Assembly: GCA_964655755.1 (NCBI GenBank)
Contig: CAZZNJ010000002.1
Span: forward strand, 1-53,371
DNA: 53,371 nucleotides
Origin: an uncultured Pseudomonadales bacterium
GTDB lineage: Bacteria; Patescibacteriota; Microgenomatia; UBA1400; UBA12108
Direction: 5' to 3'
The notes beneath the pieces are model-generated. The model was given only the letters and a program-made list of their open reading frames with translations. It did no database searches and was not told where the DNA came from. The translations under genes and the position numbers were made by a program. Positions 48,486-53,105 of this stretch are shown here, piece after piece (positions within the stretch are counted from its first letter, which is position 1; each line of letters opens with the position of its first letter).

Positions 48486-51400
48486 TTATCTATCCAAGGC
48501 TCCGGTCACAAAGCCAAAGGCTTCGGACAAATTCTTAATTACCAAGTCAAGAGCAGAGCGAGTGGCTTTTGGTGCAATCGTTACCATATCCGTACTATTA
48601 GTGGTATTATCCGTTCCATCTTGAGAAATAGCGCGCAGATGATAGACCTGACTTGGAACTAACCCAGACAAGATCACGGTATGGTTATTAGTTAAATTGC
48701 CGTCAAATTGGGATTTTTGTGAGTAAGTATTGCCTGATCCTTGTCCAAACTCAACTTGGGAGGTGGCTGGCTCATCCGTATCCCAGGTTACAATCAGTTG
48801 CGCCTTAACGTCTCCTGCGGCAAAGCCAACCGGCGGAATGGTACCTCCAATCACCTTTAAGTTAAGAATCTGCGGTGGCCTGGTGTCAGTGGCAGTCGTA
48901 AATCGCTGGACATCACTCACGGCTTCGTTGCCGAGTTTGTCGCGACCCTTAACCACCAACAGATACTTGGTCTGGGCGTTAAGTCCGCGAATGAGCATCG
49001 AGTGGGCGCCTTTTTCCAAAAGTACTTTCACCTCATCTTTAGCTGCTCCTGGATTATCCTCTGGGTAGTAGGTCACAATCGAAGAGACCTCGGTATTAGT
49101 GCTCCAAGTCACACGAATCGTGGTTTGGGCAGCATTAGCCACAGTCTCCAAACGTACTCCCGAAATCTTGGGACGAGGCAGCGTTGTAAAGTCAAGAATG
49201 GTGCCCTCGTACTCAGCGTTTTCCGAGTCAAAAGCATTGATCTTGTAGTAATACTTGGTGCCGTCATCAAGACCTGTTAGTTGGGTGGTATAAGTAGTTT
49301 CGCTAGTTGAGGTGGATATTTCTTTTACTCCGCCAAAGTTAGTAGTGGTGCCATAATAGATCTTGACCTTGGAAGCATCTTTGACGGTGTATTGAATAAT
49401 TCCTGAGGTTAGTCCGACATTTTCTGCTGAAACATCAAATACGGTTGGAGCCGGAGAAGTAGTAAAGCTCTTCTCCTCAGATTCGCCCGTGTTCCCATCT
49501 TCATCTGTCCACTTGGCTTTGTAGTAATAGGTGGTACCAGCAGTTAATCCAGTCAGATTAATCTCGTGATCCGTCACTTGGCTGGAGCTACTTGGCTCCT
49601 CGGTGTTGTACGAGCCACTACTAGTGCCAAAGGCGACTTTGGAGTCAGCGCTACGACTCGTGCTCCAACTAACTTTAGCCTTCTTGGTGGTAATCCCCGA
49701 GGTCGAGGGGCCAGAGGAAAGAGTGGGGGCAGTTGTATATCGCCCAGTAGGGGTAATCGTGACTGCATTAGTGCCGCTTGAAGTAGCGTTAGCCCCATCT
49801 TTGGTATAAATCTTATAGTAATATTGAGTGGAAGCAGGAGTATTATCAACATATGATAGGCCAGTGGTCGTGCCCACCTGGGTGAATGTTGTTCCATCAG
49901 TTGAGCGGTAGACTAAATAGGTCAAGTTACCGGCTCCCTGATAGGTAGGTGCTGTCCAGGTCAGAGTCGCGTACCACTTAGACTCAGATTTAATTGACGA
50001 GTCGGATGCAACCAGGTTACTGACATTGTCTGGATCAGTCGAGTTAAGGGTGAATGTGCCAGAGATATAGTTACTAGGGCTATAGTTATCCGCGTCATCT
50101 ACTGCCACCACATAGACATTATTACTACCCTTGTTAACTCCAGGCAAAGCCGCGGCGCTGACTGTGGTTGCTGTACCGTTATCAACATAGGTGGTAGCGT
50201 TACCAGTTAGAGTTGCGAGTGTTGAAGGAGGAGAAACATTGACCATGTAGTAATAGTTAGTGACACTCTGTCCTACAGTCGCACTCGCCTCAGGCCAAGA
50301 AAGAGCAAAAGAGTTGGAGGTAGAGGAACTTGGCGTTACAGTCACGCTGTCGCTGCCACCAAAGGTAGGTGCGGCTCCACCGTATTCCAGACTACAGGTG
50401 CGGATACTGGCATCCGAGCTGACATTCCCTGCCGCGTCAACTGAGCGGAAATAGACAATGTTACTGCCAGTTGAGATACTCCCGCCATCTTGAGCATCAG
50501 TGAGAGTACGGGAAGTTTCGGAGGTTGGAATATAGTTAGTTACCCCGAGAGTTGACTCAGTGGTAGTTCCTAGCCAGGTGCCGCCCGTAGTATTAATTTG
50601 ATACTGCCAGCCCAACACGCCAGCATTGTCATCCACGGTCGCGGTTGCCCCGCTGGTTGGCCAACTAAAGTTCATGTCAGCTACATTAGCAAAGCTTCCT
50701 CCAGGGCAAGAGACATAAGAGACATTAGTAGGTGGAGTGTTATCAAATCTAAACTGGAACTGTTCGCTTGACCCAGTATAGACGTTTTCGGCGTTATCAA
50801 TCGCCTTAATGTTGAGATAATAGGGGTCACTACCAGTTGTTAGCCAAGTACTCCCTCGATAACTGCTAGTGGCAAAGTCAATGCTAGTGCCTGCCACGAT
50901 AAACTGACAAGTCGATCCAGCAGTAGACACGGGGGAGGTGCCTAATATTCCTTTACTGGTAGCCGGATCTCCGTCCGGGTCAGCTCCTAGGTACAAACAA
51001 TAGCCCTTGAGTCCTACTCCGCCCGCGTTATCTGCTCCGGCTGTCCAGGAGAAATATGGGGCATTATTATTCGTCCAGTCGTTACTGGCCACGGTCGTCC
51101 CGCCATTACTACGGGTAGCGGCAATCGCCGAGGCGTTGGTGGTTGGGCCGGTAGTATCTGTAGTTAGTCCGACACTCAGATTGGTGATTGCTGGAGTATC
51201 AGCGCCACCAAAACCCATGATTGCTTTAATAGCTATCTTTTGGGAGGTCACAGACAAAGCTTGCATTACCGATTGGGTTAGTTCTGCCGCGGTATTAACG
51301 TGAGTAGTGGTGTTACTGGCGGTTGTCCAGGCTCCACCATCCCAGTACTTCCAACTTCCTCCTGACTCACAGGTTGAGCCATCATCCGTACACAGTTGAT

Positions 51401-53105
51401 ACACTACACTGGCGTTACCAGAGGCTGAGACTCCATCATCACTACATGTCCCGCCGGTAATGGTGCCTTCACAAAAACTATCCCAGGATGAGACCGAGGA
51501 GTTAGAGTAAGCCAGGGTGGTGTAAACGCTATAAGTGCCATTTTTTGACAAGGTAAAGTCGTCTAAGATAACAGTCTTGCCGGATTTAACTAACGCCCCG
51601 TAATTGCGGGCCTCATTGGCTCCAGTGACTTGTCCGGTCAGCTTCCACCAGCCACTGCCCATATCGGTATAAGTAGTGGTGACGGTGCCACCGTTGTAAT
51701 AAAGCTGGGCAATAGAGGAAGAAACTGTGCCGCCGACATTTCCGGCCGTATTGTCATACACATAAGTGGAAAGATCATAAGTAGAGGTGTCTCCCACATT
51801 CACTGACTGCACCACTTTAGCATCGGAGATTGTCCCCACAAAAATTTGGTCGCCGCCGGCCGCTCCGCGGCCTAATGAAGAGGAATAAGAGTGATAGAGG
51901 TCTACTGGATCACTGGCGCAGCGAAACCCACCATTGTTGCTCTGACGCGAAGGGGTACCATTCAGATGCAGAGCGAACGCCCCGGCGTTGGACGTATCAT
52001 TCCAATAACCGCCGCGGAGAAAGGCATAAACAGTTGATGAGACTGATTCACTATCATGATAAATCCTACCTACTCCGTAATCGGCATTGTAGGAGCTGTT
52101 GGAGGGTCGCAGTAAGTCATAAGAAAGACTCCCATAACCAGTGAGCGCTGTATATTCTCGCCAGGCAAAGCCAGATTGCCCTGACACATCTGGTTGGTCA
52201 GCGCCTGTAATGGTGTCACTATTCCAATCCCAGACGTTACCGGAAAGATCCCAAATCTCAGATCCATTAGAAAGCGTGAGTTTGGCCTTAGTATCACGGC
52301 CAGTGCCGTAATCTGGGTCAGTCGAGGCGTTGTAGCCAACACTTGTACTCTCACCCACATTTCCTCTAAACATTCCACCCCCTGCGGCCACCGTTGAGCC
52401 TACCGTTCCATTTGCCCAGTTAGCAGTTTGGGCTTCAGCGTTTCTGACAATCGTCATCCATTCAGCATTAGATATGAGATGGTAGCCACTAGGACAAGCA
52501 GAAAGAGCTTGGGTTTGCGTAATATGGACAATCGGTGCACCGTTAGCCGTTGAGACGACATTAGCGCTGTCAAAGGTTAGATCACGATAGTCTAGTCCTG
52601 CTCCAGAATCAGCTGGGGCACTACAGGTAGCAGCCGTATCTCCATCCCCATCAGCGGTACAGTCATATTTAGCCTCATAAGCCATAGCCAGGAAAGCTTT
52701 GTTGCCTCCTCCAGTTGTGTAGGTGCTATTGCCTGGCACTGGGATATATCCGGCTGGGGTAGTAGAACCTGCAATCGGAGTAATTGACCAGGAGGAGTTG
52801 TCAGAAGAAAAATCAGGATTAGTGAGCTTATTCACTCCCGTTACAGGGTGTGCTCCGGAGCCATCTACTGCCACTAAATTACTATCATAAGTATAATTAG
52901 CCGCTTGCCCCACACTGAATGTCCAGGTGTTACTGGTGTCGTTGAGGGCAAAGACACTGGGAAAGACTTGATAGAGTGCTAGATAGATACCGGTTACAAG
53001 GCCGATAGAGGAAACAAAAACAGTAAACAGATTCAGCTGAAATCTGGATAAATGCCAGCGTGGAGAGAAGAAATAGATTTTGAGCCTGTTTAGTAGTTTC
53101 TTCAT
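48486..53105 (-). CDS. Giant membrane-anchored surface protein: FGE-sulfatase (SUMF1/C-type-lectin fold) domain + CBM-like domain + many FN3-like repeats
   Basis: 1539 aa. N-terminal TM segment. ISNAEWMTIVRNAE, GNVWDWNSD, RGGYWND and GGFRCA (FGE-sulfatase fold). Later repeated ~90-100-aa beta modules with YYYK(A/I) signatures. Confidence 0.9.
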   Translation of the reverse strand: MKKLLNRLKIYFFSPRWHLSRFQLNLFTVFVSSIGLVTGIYLALYQVFPSVFALNDTSNTWTFSVGQAANYTYDSNLVAVDGSGAHPVTGVNKLTNPDFSSDNSSWSITPIAGSTTPAGYIPVPGNSTYTTGGGNKAFLAMAYEAKYDCTADGDGDTAATCSAPADSGAGLDYRDLTFDSANVVSTANGAPIVHITQTQALSACPSGYHLISNAEWMTIVRNAEAQTANWANGTVGSTVAAGGGMFRGNVGESTSVGYNASTDPDYGTGRDTKAKLTLSNGSEIWDLSGNVWDWNSDTITGADQPDVSGQSGFAWREYTALTGYGSLSYDLLRPSNSSYNADYGVGRIYHDSESVSSTVYAFLRGGYWNDTSNAGAFALHLNGTPSRQSNNGGFRCASDPVDLYHSYSSSLGRGAAGGDQIFVGTISDAKVVQSVNVGDTSTYDLSTYVYDNTAGNVGGTVSSSIAQLYYNGGTVTTTYTDMGSGWWKLTGQVTGANEARNYGALVKSGKTVILDDFTLSKNGTYSVYTTLAYSNSSVSSWDSFCEGTITGGTCSDDGVSASGNASVVYQLCTDDGSTCESGGSWKYWDGGAWTTASNTTTHVNTAAELTQSVMQALSVTSQKIAIKAIMGFGGADTPAITNLSVGLTTDTTGPTTNASAIAATRSNGGTTVASNDWTNNNAPYFSWTAGADNAGGVGLKGYCLYLGADPDGDPATSKGILGTSPVSTAGSTCQFIVAGTSIDFATSSYRGSTWLTTGSDPYYLNIKAIDNAENVYTGSSEQFQFRFDNTPPTNVSYVSCPGGSFANVADMNFSWPTSGATATVDDNAGVLGWQYQINTTGGTWLGTTTESTLGVTNYIPTSETSRTLTDAQDGGSISTGSNIVYFRSVDAAGNVSSDASIRTCSLEYGGAAPTFGGSDSVTVTPSSSTSNSFALSWPEASATVGQSVTNYYYMVNVSPPSTLATLTGNATTYVDNGTATTVSAAALPGVNKGSNNVYVVAVDDADNYSPSNYISGTFTLNSTDPDNVSNLVASDSSIKSESKWYATLTWTAPTYQGAGNLTYLVYRSTDGTTFTQVGTTTGLSYVDNTPASTQYYYKIYTKDGANATSSGTNAVTITPTGRYTTAPTLSSGPSTSGITTKKAKVSWSTSRSADSKVAFGTSSGSYNTEEPSSSSQVTDHEINLTGLTAGTTYYYKAKWTDEDGNTGESEEKSFTTSPAPTVFDVSAENVGLTSGIIQYTVKDASKVKIYYGTTTNFGGVKEISTSTSETTYTTQLTGLDDGTKYYYKINAFDSENAEYEGTILDFTTLPRPKISGVRLETVANAAQTTIRVTWSTNTEVSSIVTYYPEDNPGAAKDEVKVLLEKGAHSMLIRGLNAQTKYLLVVKGRDKLGNEAVSDVQRFTTATDTRPPQILNLKVIGGTIPPVGFAAGDVKAQLIVTWDTDEPATSQVEFGQGSGNTYSQKSQFDGNLTNNHTVILSGLVPSQVYHLRAISQDGTDNTTNSTDMVTIAPKATRSALDLVIKNLSEAFGFVTGALDR

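Follow-up and report, generated by a model that had tools for sequence, protein, structure and literature searches.

BIG, a probable DGR variable protein with an internal variable repeat beside ABC and T4SS genes in a CPR bacterium

Diversity-generating retroelements (DGRs) of CPR/Patescibacteria were reportedly described by Paul et al. in 2017. In Gram-positive conjugative elements such as pCF10, adhesins (PrgB in that case) are encoded immediately upstream of the T4SS genes, and plasmid R64 carries PilV, a contact protein varied by a shufflon. According to Roux et al. (2021; PMC8144416), variable repeats (VRs) are near-universally C-terminal, and the targets in CPR bacteria are typically without a recognisable transmembrane or other conserved domain. 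ICE-borne DGRs diversify adhesins in Bacteroides (type V pilus tip adhesins), where the diversified adhesin is dispensable for conjugation (bioRxiv 10.1101/2024.11.15.621889), and in Legionella (PMC4010831).

The locus described here lies in a window of 53,371 nucleotides, the whole stretch of DNA analysed. Its minus strand carries at 48486..53105 a gene with an ATG start, here named BIG, with orthologues in 20+ loci; the orthologue at locus L007 is colinear and 86% identical in nucleotides. There are good grounds to regard the 1539-aa product as the DGR variable protein of a Microgenomates-related CPR bacterium, including its proposed export, display and role in recognition. A preliminary description had marked exactly this ORF and suggested a role in host contact or surface recognition, which remains reasonable because of the export signal, the lectin/FGE fold, the CBM-like domain, the FN3 array and the genetic coupling to ABC and T4SS genes. 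It missed the key point, however, which is that the lectin-fold domain bears a DGR VR and that BIG is not a static adhesin. The DGR would rewrite about a dozen codons in the lectin-like binding domain, and the gene belongs to a cluster of conjugation-type secretion genes in an ultra-small (CPR) bacterium, so that BIG is probably a fast-evolving adhesin for partner recognition.

The lectin-fold domain and its variable repeat

The three motifs pointed out earlier (GNVWDWNSD, RGGYWND and GGFRCA) are all present in the BIG translation, and the C-type-lectin/FGE-sulfatase-fold domain, with an N-terminal elaboration, spans aa ~90–400 (51906..52838, minus strand). Pfam recovered PF03781 marginally at aa 186–397 of the whole protein (23.5 bits, cut-off 23.3) and with 27.5 bits in the isolated N-terminal part. 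The AlphaFold2 model has pLDDT >90 over aa ~90–524, and the best PDB matches of this confident model by Foldseek are TaqVP (5vf4), Mtd (1yu4) and TvpA (2y3c). The FGE-sulfatase domain of the preliminary description thus stands as a fold, but as the C-type-lectin scaffold of DGR variable proteins and not as an FGE-type enzyme. A membrane-tethered catalyst of the FGE/SUMF1 type, for formylglycine generation or a related oxidation, is highly improbable. The fold is shared with the formylglycine-generating enzyme/EgtB family, with a Pfam match at the gathering threshold, and automatic annotation gives some homologues the name 'SUMF1/EgtB/PvdO family nonheme iron enzyme'. Members of the FGE family use a catalytic Cys pair, however, which BIG lacks, because from aa 205 to aa 544 it has a single Cys, C396 (in GFRCA); the corresponding stretch is taken up by the hypervariable VR; and in Foldseek DGR variable proteins rank above EgtB, with FGE absent among the 50 matches listed.

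The VR (aa 361–399, AFLRGGYWNDTSNAGAFALHLNGTPSRQSNNGGFRCASD; 51907..52027, minus strand) aligns to the template repeats (TRs) of loci L007 and L028 with no gap; in the L007 orthologue it covers aa 360–399. Compared with these TRs, the VR of the window differs at 11 of 31 TR adenines and at 3 of 90 other sites (Fisher p about 1e-5), two of the latter three lying within the IMH and one outside it. The same bias is seen across 15 locus pairs, in which 177 of 391 TR adenines differ between TR and VR against 23 of 1057 other positions, all 23 at the extreme 3′ end. The comparison of related loci that had been proposed as a check for hypervariability was the right one to make, and it shows VR differences concentrated at TR adenines. 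At the 11 main variable codons the TR has Asn (AAY) in every related locus. The VR closes with an invariant, GC-rich, IMH-like end (GGGTTTCGCTGCGCCAGTGAT; 51909..51929, minus strand), which has fixed differences from the TR end (..GCCAGCGATT) at non-adenine positions; identical C/T and T/C differences recur in 11 of the 15 pairs. Two Logan contigs of the window's own strain (L003 and L004), 100% identical to the window, begin inside the VR, within 25 nt of its 3′ end, and in L004 codon 392 reads ATT where the window has GGT, a VR difference that includes a non-adenine change. The internal position of the VR, with about 1140 residues following it, is unusual.

At 16 related loci, Avd, TR and a reverse transcriptase (RT) are found upstream of the BIG orthologue, and nearly all TR/VR differences there fall on TR adenines. 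L007 has colinear ORFs (sizes 1539/258/657/111/426/159/205), an Avd scoring 92 bits against NCBIfam DivGenRetAVD (cut-off 80), and TR and RT upstream of its BIG orthologue, the RT carrying the motifs IGNLTSQ and YMDD; L028 has the same DGR layout. Among RT homologues, the organisms named are Collierbacteria, Shapirobacteria, WWE3 and Moranbacteria. Within the window itself no TR, RT or Avd is found, and its own TR is not seen because the window ends about 1 kb before the expected retroelement. What it does contain is the 3′ end of a Bro-N-type gene (53102..53371, minus strand), with a stop codon that overlaps the start codon of BIG (ATGA). This truncated ORF matches a nearly identical 283-aa Bro-N gene that directly follows the DGR RT in L028, and by synteny the Avd–TR–RT cassette would lie immediately outside the window, on the upstream side of the Bro-N gene. 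A 67,970-bp contig carries the window's Lon protein, an NCBI contig of equal size carries an RT 93.6% identical to that of L007, and a Logan contig with exactly this RT starts with a TR 3′ end. From the orthologues, the same-strain contigs and the coinciding lengths of the two 67,970-bp contigs, rather than from a direct reading, we infer that the genome contains a DGR.

BIG could instead descend from a DGR target whose retroelement has been lost or inactivated in this genome, which would make it an ordinary surface protein with its VR frozen as one allele. The window without TR or RT, the single VR difference outside the IMH at a non-adenine position and the frameshifted VRs of the relatives L001 and L020 would fit such a relic; these frameshifts reflect either real decay or assembly errors at the VR. 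We consider a relic unlikely, as the ORF, the IMH-like end and the hairpin described below are intact, same-strain contigs break in the VR (one with a different codon 392), and an RT of the right identity lies on a contig of the size of that with the window's Lon. In an active DGR, by analogy with characterised systems, the Avd/RT pair would copy TR RNA into cDNA, misincorporating at adenines, and the cDNA would replace the VR of BIG (aa 361–399), giving a potential diversity of about 10^13–10^16 peptides without stop codons.

A conserved GC hairpin, GGCCGC-GGA-GCGGCC (51858..51872, minus strand), lies in frame downstream of the VR at a distance of 37 nt, and its codons (G412 R413 G414 A415 A416) encode a G-R-G-A-A loop. 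In the consensus structure of 15 loci, 91.7% of cells are paired at the hairpin as opposed to 17–58% in slid controls; covariation is confined to one compensatory pair (C-G/T-A), the hairpin is also found in the DNA fold of the window's own sequence, and the region folds with a weak z-score (−1.44). It is a candidate cis element for retrohoming. Guo et al. (2011; PMC3240598) described GC stems with GRNA loops at spacings of 4–34 bp; their stems have 7–10 bp and their loops 4 nt, as against 6 bp and 3 nt here. Its location inside coding sequence is unusual, such hairpins usually lying in intergenic DNA after the VR.

Export signal and domain architecture

The only hydrophobic segment of BIG by hydropathy is at aa ~24–53, preceded by six K/R, and forms part of an N-terminal export signal (aa 1–53; 52947..53105, minus strand) made up of a basic n-region with the motif PRW[HQ]xSRFQxN, a hydrophobic core of ~20 aa and a c-region ending in PSVFA/LNDT (the slash marks the putative cleavage site). 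Motif and VFA/LND site are kept across orthologues of 50–97% identity. The segment, through which BIG would be Sec-exported, is a predicted signal peptide or signal anchor, and it could be cleavable rather than permanent because it ends in PSVFA/LNDT. The TM anchor proposed earlier therefore stands as a single hydrophobic segment but not necessarily as a lasting anchor, and the proposed geometry of a membrane-proximal ligand domain with a distal FN3 stalk holds only if the segment stays uncleaved. The conserved VFA/LND site and C-terminal tail also allow the reverse, in which the signal would be cleaved, the C terminus would form the base and the lectin domain the tip. This tail (aa 1501–1539, ..PKATRSALDLVIKNLSEAFGFVTGALDR; 48489..48605, minus strand) is conserved in orthologues down to ~50% identity, is without predicted fold (pLDDT <40) and is a possible docking or anchoring element. 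As described before, neither an LPXTG motif nor a C-terminal hydrophobic segment is found in the 1539 aa.

Structure prediction modelled the lectin fold, a CBM-like jelly roll and an FN3-like array, and Pfam recovered fn3 alongside the FGE-sulfatase family. The CBM-like beta domain (aa 400–524; 51534..51908, minus strand) has no Pfam match, though its earlier recognition is backed by a confident model (pLDDT ~90–97) and by Foldseek matches to CBM16, CBM22, CBM61 and phage tailspike lectin domains. It is followed by a Cys-rich domain of low- to medium-confidence beta structure (aa 525–647, with Cys 545, 554, 572 and 579; 51165..51533, minus strand) and by about 8 FN3-like beta-sandwich modules (aa 648–1500; 48606..51164, minus strand). 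The modules recognisable from sequence are the last four, clear FN3/purple-acid-phosphatase-N-type repeats at aa 1103–1495 (Pfam fn3 and Pur_ac_phosph_N; repeat HMM), plus one weak match. The model of aa 520–1539 is all-beta, with Foldseek matches to FN3/Ig arrays (fibronectin, contactin, cytokine receptors). The array of 'about ten' modules thus exists with a count that was slightly high, as it comprises ~8 modules and one Cys-rich beta domain. Displayed at the cell surface with these domains, BIG would act as a hypervariable and probably glycan-directed recognition protein or adhesin.

ABC/MacB and T4SS neighbourhood

An ABC ATPase gene of the LolD/DevA/FtsE/MacB type (47707..48483, minus strand; Pfam ABC_tran and NCBIfam) starts 2 nt after the BIG stop, followed by a MacB/FtsX-type permease gene (45731..47704, minus strand; Pfam MacB_PCD and FtsX, NCBIfam MacB/LolCE/FtsX) with an extracytoplasmic region of ~400 aa. 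The order BIG–ABC–MacB is kept in every locus long enough to show it. The ABC exporter noted directly downstream of BIG was correctly placed, but by NCBIfam it is of the MacB/LolCDE/FtsEX type, a class not known as classical substrate exporters. With less certainty, the handling or function of BIG may depend on this translationally coupled system.

The T4SS-like operon reported on the same strand was also found, with genes of the monoderm/ICE type at 40447..45581 (minus strand; Pfam, Mycoplasma-ICE-type NCBIfam matches, and synteny with L007, L008, L009, L017 and L028) for a VirB2-like pilin, a pilin–VirB6 fusion, PrgI/VirB3, a VirB4 N-domain, a VirB4 ATPase and an M23 peptidase. At orthologous loci there are, besides T4SS genes, a serine recombinase, a coupling protein (T4CP) and a Replic_Relax protein, and the operon belongs to an ICE-like element that also embeds the rest of the module. 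BIG may, again less certainly, serve contact with partner cells, whether host or recipient, on behalf of this element. MacB and VirB2 are separated by a promoter-like and a terminator-like site, which points to separate transcription units.

BIG might more specifically be the missing donor–recipient contact adhesin of the T4SS, with the DGR varying recipient range, a doubtful reading in which it would correspond in function to PrgB or to the shufflon-varied PilV. It lies immediately upstream of the T4SS genes, as adhesins do in Gram-positive conjugative elements, and recombinase, T4CP and Replic_Relax belong to the same element. The Patescibacteria T4SS survey (PMC12102498), which cites R64 and PrgB, found no PrgB-like adhesin, but it also found most of these T4SS to be without relaxases and thought to be non-conjugative in role. 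Further points against it are that the Bacteroides adhesin is dispensable for transfer, that no T4SS genes were detected within 21 kb at some DGR–BIG–ABC/MacB loci, and that a transcription boundary may precede VirB2.

That the element merely carries DGR and BIG as cargo, BIG serving an episymbiotic lifestyle by binding variable surface glycans on a host bacterium or on particles without involvement of the T4SS, is a stronger candidate, somewhat short of an even chance. Targets of cellular DGRs are generally viewed in this way (Roux et al. 2021, PMC8144416), and the idea fits the Bacteroides precedent and agrees with the CPR host and with the carbohydrate ligands suggested by the lectin fold and CBM-like domain. 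It leaves unexplained, however, why BIG is invariably and tightly coupled to MacB-type ABC genes and why the T4SS neighbourhood recurs in different arrangements (L009/L021 versus L007).

Comparison with known systems

As a DGR variable protein, BIG shares with Mtd of Bordetella phage BPP-1, TvpA of Treponema denticola and TaqVP of Thermus aquaticus a VR on the same C-type-lectin fold, Asn-rich AAY TR codons, adenine-specific differences, an invariant GC-rich 3′ end, a GC hairpin after the VR, and Avd with a DGR-type RT (here from orthologous loci). Unlike in these systems, the VR is at aa 361–399 of 1539 and not at the C terminus, CBM-like and Cys-rich domains and about 8 FN3 modules come after it, and the hairpin, with its short stem and loop (6 bp, 3 nt), is within coding sequence. 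The CPR/Patescibacteria DGRs of clade 2 (Roux et al. 2021, PMC8144416) are likewise cellular and from CPR genomes of environmental metagenomes, but BIG differs from their typical targets in its N-terminal signal/TM segment, its CBM-like and FN3 domains and its internal VR.

With the ICEs of Bacteroides and Legionella, as the available parts of the two reports present them (bioRxiv 10.1101/2024.11.15.621889; PMC4010831), the element has in common a DGR and a surface adhesin target alongside recombinase, coupling protein and T4SS genes. It differs in phylum, in its monoderm/Mycoplasma-ICE-like T4SS, in a target that is a 1539-aa multi-domain protein and not a pilin or lipoprotein, and in the coupling to MacB-type ABC genes, of which these parts make no mention. 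Like PrgB of pCF10, BIG is encoded as a large surface protein just upstream of monoderm-type T4SS genes, although it is without an LPXTG motif and no PrgB homology was found in Pfam. Like PilV of R64, it would be a contact protein with programmed variation, achieved in PilV by site-specific inversion and in BIG by retrohoming.

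The 1539-residue protein

The 1539-aa open reading frame with an ATG start (BIG, 48486-53105, minus strand) was confirmed, and the motifs quoted from it in the preliminary description were found in its translation, which is rich in Thr, Ser, and Gly and contains 12 cysteines. Hydropathy analysis gave one hydrophobic segment, at residues ~24-53, preceded by a basic N terminus. In agreement with the earlier statement that LPXTG is missing, motif and hydropathy scans found neither an LPx[TSA]G motif nor a C-terminal hydrophobic segment; the C-terminal sorting signal and hydrophobic tail of LPXTG-anchored Gram-positive adhesins (PrgB type) are thus not present. 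The type IV prepilin N terminus (G|FTLIE, PF07963) is also absent from BIG, which begins MKKLLNRLKIYFFSPRWHLSRFQLN... Conserved among the orthologues are the n-region motif PRW[HQ]xSRFQxN, a ...VFA|LND site, and the C-terminal tail; the first two resemble the extended signal peptides of Gram-positive bacteria, for example those of YSIRK type, though only in the manner of an analogy.

The FGE-sulfatase fold proposed for the N-proximal region was recovered by domain search, with a Pfam match at residues 186-397 (23.5 bits against a gathering threshold of 23.3) that rose to 27.5 bits for the isolated N-terminal part. An AlphaFold2 model of residues 55-660, built from 112 homologues, was very confident (pLDDT >90) over residues ~90-524. 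The best Foldseek matches of its first domain were TaqVP, Mtd, and TvpA, which are variable proteins of diversity-generating retroelements (DGRs), and its second domain resembles CBM16/22/61 jelly rolls, as expected from the CBM-like domain described earlier. Several Pfam Pur_ac_phosph_N and fn3 matches were found in the C-terminal third, and nothing significant in the middle domains (residues 400-1097). Four clear FN3-type repeats (residues 1103-1495) and one weak one are recognisable by sequence, and the model of residues 520-1539 is all-beta, of medium confidence, and resembles FN3/Ig arrays. The FN3 array of the preliminary description therefore stands, with about eight modules, counted from the model and the recurring (D/T)xxPP-type starts, rather than about ten. 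A PDB sequence search with the full protein returned no matches, PDB relatives being obtained by structure comparison alone; a PADLOC search with the protein returned nothing, and an exact look-up of its sequence gave no record. Clustered at 50% identity, the sizeable family defined by the middle region numbers 448 representatives with E ≤ 1e-3 and 144 with E ≤ 1e-30, mostly 1400-2500 aa long.

Variable repeat, template repeat and retroelement cassette

A DGR consists of Avd, a template repeat (TR), and a reverse transcriptase (RT), and it rewrites the variable repeat (VR) of a target gene. The VR of BIG lies at 51907-52027 (minus strand) and encodes residues 361-399 (AFLRGGYWNDTSNAGAFALHLNGTPSRQSNNGGFRCASD). 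A repeat search across all 53 kb found no TR in the window; because the TR is outside, the VR was compared with the TRs of L007 and L028, which are 86%-identical orthologous loci. Differences were found at 11 of 31 adenine sites and at 3 of 90 non-adenine sites, the latter comprising two fixed differences at the end (the IMH, the invariant GC-rich 3' end of the VR) and a T-to-G change in codon 392. Between these two TRs a single boundary base differs, although the genomes of L007 and L028 are ~14% diverged. In 15 related TR/VR locus pairs, the VR departs from the TR at 177 of 391 TR adenines versus 23 of 1057 other positions, and these 23 changes are confined to the last few bases, where the TR and VR ends differ systematically (fixed differences, ..AGCGATT versus ..AGTGATC, in 11 of the 15). 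Nearly the same peptide is encoded by all TRs (AFLRGGNWNNTSNAGAFALNLNNxPxNQNNNIGFRCASD), and differences among the VRs coincide exactly with the TR Asn codons, so that the hypervariability among related alleles suggested earlier as a check was indeed observed. The computed TR repertoire, from 11 AAY codons with 15 outcomes each and six codons with 4 outcomes each, is ~3.5e16 peptides, and no stop codon can be reached from the TR by adenine change.

Two Logan contigs of the same strain, L003 and L004, come from separate runs and match the window at 100% identity, L003 along 6.7 kb and L004 along 4.6 kb; both begin within the last 25 nt of the VR. Codon 392 reads ATT in the first bases of L004 and GGT in the window, so that the VR is heterogeneous in the population of this strain. 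A look-up with the adjoining ABC ATPase returned only short same-strain contigs. Assemblies break at the BIG VR, and such genes are therefore easily split or lost in the annotation of metagenome-assembled genomes (MAGs).

BIG and the TRs of L007 and L028 thus provide a VR and TR that differ almost only at TR adenines; the VR is placed in a C-type-lectin fold by the AlphaFold2 model, the Foldseek matches, and Pfam FGE-sulfatase, and it has an IMH-type invariant 3' end with a GC hairpin downstream. This comparison of sequences shows the gene to be a DGR target with a lectin-fold VR. FGE/SUMF1 enzymes are defined by a catalytic Cys pair in the active-site loop. An enzyme of this kind was considered for the domain and rejected, because the pair is absent (C396 is the only Cys between residues 205 and 544) and the site is hypervariable.

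The cassette itself was seen in related loci. In L001, from a Patescibacteria MAG, genes for bAvd, an RVT_1 reverse transcriptase, Bro-N, and NYN lie upstream of the BIG homologue, and the Avd-RT spacer shares an 89-nt repeat with the region encoding the lectin-domain end; the two copies differ only where the upstream one has adenine. L007 was found by a scan of GTDB genomes, and further loci were obtained from a metagenome scan and protein look-ups. L007 is 86% identical to the window at the nucleotide level over 11.3 kb, colinear and with equal ORF sizes, and contains Avd (6884-7327), the TR (7368-7485), the RT (7638-8810), and the 1539-aa gene (9839-14458) with its VR (10918-11035). The ORF between RT and target (9018-9842) was listed as Bro-N-type in one comparison and in another as a 274-aa ORF unrelated to the Bro-N of other loci. 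Avd of the orthologous locus matches NCBIfam DivGenRetAVD above cut-off, and the L007 RT carries IGNLTSQ and YMDD, which we take to be the DGR-type RT motif and the catalytic motif, respectively. Avd/RT genes are located upstream of the BIG orthologue in L001, L007, L008-L012, L014-L018, L020, L021, L025, and L028; the window ends ~1 kb short of where they would be expected, inside a Bro-N-type gene (53102-53371) whose stop overlaps the BIG start. This fragment is nearly identical to the C terminus of the 283-aa Bro-N gene directly after the RT in L028. Another RT, P0244, is 93.6% identical to that of L007 and is recorded on a contig of 67,970 bp, which is also the length of the contig that carries the Lon protease of the window; a Logan contig with exactly this RT starts with the TR 3' end, ...AACAACAATATTGGGTTTCGCTGCGCCAGCGATT. 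We infer that the DGR cassette of the window's genome is located ~1 kb past the window end.

The slot between RT and target varies by locus, with Bro-N in L028 (11187-12038) and Bro-N plus NYN in L001 (6958-8532), and every slot gene in L001, L007, L028, and the window overlaps or abuts the start of the target. L025 contains a 1943-aa homologue (8521-14350) with two lectin modules, each ending in VR-like sequence (motifs at 9604 and 10924), and a single TR-type motif was found in that locus (7195). The closest public relative, L007 (JAIOHL010000169.1), a contig of 124 kb, belongs to a bin labelled 'Anaerolineae bacterium', and two other matches are named Chloroflexi and Caldilineaceae; such names could stem from mis-binning or else from passage of the element from one phylum to another.

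Internal variable repeat and in-frame hairpin

The VR ends at residue 399 of 1539, and ~1140 residues follow in the BIG lineage; the location at the protein C terminus that is typical, although not strictly defining, of VRs is not found here. In the wider lectin-domain family, the GFRC motif is usually 2-6 residues from the C terminus, with 42 of 77 motif-bearing matches ending within 6 aa after it. The VR was terminal in 87% of cases in one survey (PMC11661182), and C-terminal VRs have been called 'near-universal' and explained by the need for intergenic retrohoming cis elements (Roux et al. 2021, PMC8144416). Prepilin or archaeal-type N termini were noted in lectin-domain homologues P0062, P0065, P0070, P0082, P0085, P0091, and P0094-P0110. 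In those of Parcubacteria type, the lectin domain is fused to type IV prepilin N termini (GFTLIE, PF07963), and in those of Nanoarchaeota to archaeal flagellin-like (class III signal) N termini, the VR-type motif being at the extreme C terminus in both.

A GC inverted repeat (GGCCGC-GGA-GCGGCC, 51858-51872) is located 37 nt 3' of the VR of BIG, in frame, and codes for G412-R413-G414-A415-A416. The hairpin is the consensus fold of 15 loci, with pairing in 91.7% of cells versus 17-58% with the partner slid. One pair covaries, C-G giving way to T-A in three distinct sequences; with T-A, Ala becomes Thr on one side, and the change on the other side is synonymous. Over the 90 nt that follow the VR, the window and L007 are less diverged, differing at 2 positions. 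The hairpins that Guo et al. found to be needed for retrohoming have GC-rich stems of 7-10 bp and GRNA loops, at spacings of 4-34 bp (PMC3240598); in BIG, the 6-bp stem and 3-nt loop (GGA/GAA/GCA) are both shorter than the published consensus. With moderate confidence, the in-frame hairpin is regarded as a candidate DGR cis element in BIG. Set against the accepted constraint of intergenic cis elements, a conserved family with an internal VR and in-frame hairpin would show how this constraint is met within a gene, which is relevant both to target recognition and to the engineering of DGRs for internal protein segments.

A 'two-gene' architecture, in which a ~430-aa lectin protein and a ~1100-aa FN3 protein would be the native form, was also considered and was rejected because the split in L001 results from the loss of one nucleotide from the VR, as judged against the TR. 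Frameshifts of the VR relative to the TR split the gene into ~430-aa and ~1100-aa ORFs in L001 (9810-9905) and L020 (~9323), either by real decay or by assembly error at a hypervariable site. Many of the short lectin proteins may come from contigs that end at the VR.

Neighbouring genes, proposed working and known systems

Downstream of BIG, the ABC ATPase, permease, and T4SS genes follow on the same strand, as the preliminary description had them. The ATPase starts 2 nt after the BIG stop, and the MacB_PCD/FtsX permease follows after a further 2 nt, succeeded by a VirB2-like pilin, a pilin-VirB6 fusion, PrgI/VirB3, an ORF for the VirB4 N-domain, a VirB4-like ATPase, and an M23 peptidase. The triad of BIG, ABC ATPase, and MacB/FtsX permease is kept in all loci that are long enough, down to ~50% identity, with ATPase and permease fused in L001. 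By NCBIfam, the ATPase groups with LolD/DevA/FtsE and the permease with MacB/LolCE/FtsX, and the pair presumably represents a type VII ABC system, performing extracytoplasmic mechanical work and not classical export. The permease (45731-47704, minus strand) has an unusually long extracytoplasmic region of ~400 aa from the first TM to the FtsX domain, and its stretch ..FLKVRKEPNTSSPIIGYTKRVEG.. reads, by eye, like an SH3b-type fold.

The T4SS proteins of the window resemble Mycoplasma-ICE types (NCBIfam). VirB4 is seemingly split, with a 205-aa ORF (42842-43459, minus strand) matching the N-terminal positions 100-283 of the Mycoplasma-ICE VirB4 models and the ATPase domain in the next ORF (41050-42849, minus strand), the two overlapping by 8 nt (42842-42849). 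The VirB6-like polytopic protein (43932-45212, minus strand) carries a T4SS-pilin (VirB2-like) domain at its N terminus, and a separate VirB2-like pilin gene (45246-45581) is immediately upstream. In the 149-nt gap between MacB and VirB2, a strong, near-consensus promoter-like site (TTGACT-16-TATAAT) precedes a terminator-like hairpin and T-run (45636-45703, minus strand); together they could mark a transcription boundary or leader.

Upstream of the DGR in L007 and L028 are a large serine recombinase, an 856-aa VirD4/TraD-like coupling protein, and a Replic_Relax protein, and parts of this set are present in most other loci. T4SS genes follow MacB in L007, L008/L010, L017, and L028; they are on the other side and in opposite orientation in L009/L021, and were not found within the locus DNA examined for L011, L015, and L020. 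Of the recombinase, coupling protein, relaxase, and T4SS that form one block in an ICE, the window holds the T4SS part only, and its 38-53 kb portion has the appearance of a single arm of an ICE-like element. Bordering the T4SS cluster, where GC falls to 0.35, a 616-aa OLD/AriA/GajA-like AAA_15 ATPase (38556-40406, minus strand; PADLOC AriA 1.9e-26, Old 1.1e-20) adjoins a small PLD-like nuclease-domain protein (37645-38100, plus strand), and together they may form a pair of defence genes located where the element ends. Elsewhere the window contains genes of ordinary cellular function, among them those for Lon, P-type ATPases, and an aldehyde dehydrogenase. The closest named relatives of Lon are from Collierbacteria, Woesebacteria, and Microgenomates (~70% identity), which identifies the host as a CPR bacterium. 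A tRNA scan found none in the window. At the far window end, ~608-1495 (minus strand) gave a weak (29%) tblastn match to the L007 serine recombinase and may represent a further recombinase that has no relation to the element. Direct repeats with a 159-nt period were seen at 7449-7834 inside an ORF (7376-7912, minus strand), and a duplicated 66-nt motif coding ..MIEHHxGAIxMAK.. at 16868-17188 in another (16737-17300, plus strand).

By analogy with characterised DGRs, Avd-RT would copy TR RNA with misincorporation at adenines, and the cDNA would replace the VR via the IMH-like end and probably the hairpin. BIG is predicted from its sequence to be exported by Sec. Were the signal cleaved, the conserved C-terminal tail could serve as the base of a stalk of several tens of nm with the lectin domain at its tip, removing the paradox of the earlier orientation, in which the ligand-binding fold sat next to the membrane; with an uncleaved signal, the lectin domain would be membrane-proximal. 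It may be speculated that the MacB-type system handles or powers BIG and that BIG recognises glycans on host or recipient cells.

Patescibacteria T4SSs are widespread, and cultured strains cannot grow epibiotically without some of their components (PMC12102498). The same survey reported no PrgB-like adhesin and few relaxases, and no adhesin has been assigned to these systems, which makes BIG a candidate contact factor; the available supplementary files of that paper do not mention FtsX, RVT_1, FGE-sulfatase, or Avd in the vicinity of virB4. A cargo role is at least as likely, since an ICE-borne, DGR-diversified pilus adhesin of Bacteroides is dispensable for transfer (bioRxiv 10.1101/2024.11.15.621889). 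That DGR, BIG, and ABC/MacB form a partner-recognition device of the T4SS, with the RT continually reprogramming a lectin tip on its FN3 stalk and the MacB-type mechanotransducer helping this tip to dock the machine onto new host or recipient cells, is a tentative and rather improbable proposal. If true, it would mean that an episymbiont switches its host or recipient range by means of a retroelement, and it would provide a natural case of DGR cis elements acting within an open reading frame. As a hypervariable surface protein tightly linked to a T4SS, BIG is a tangible candidate for the means by which these ultra-small symbionts, or the mobile elements they carry, recognise partners that change.

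DGRs of CPR bacteria were already known, and their targets have been said to have no recognisable domains (PMC8144416), whereas BIG has a long CBM/FN3 extension and an N-terminal signal. With DGR variable proteins it shares the fold, the TR/VR logic, and the cis elements. It differs from described DGR targets in its internal VR, its in-frame hairpin, and its fixed coupling to a MacB-type ABC system in a T4SS/ICE-like element.
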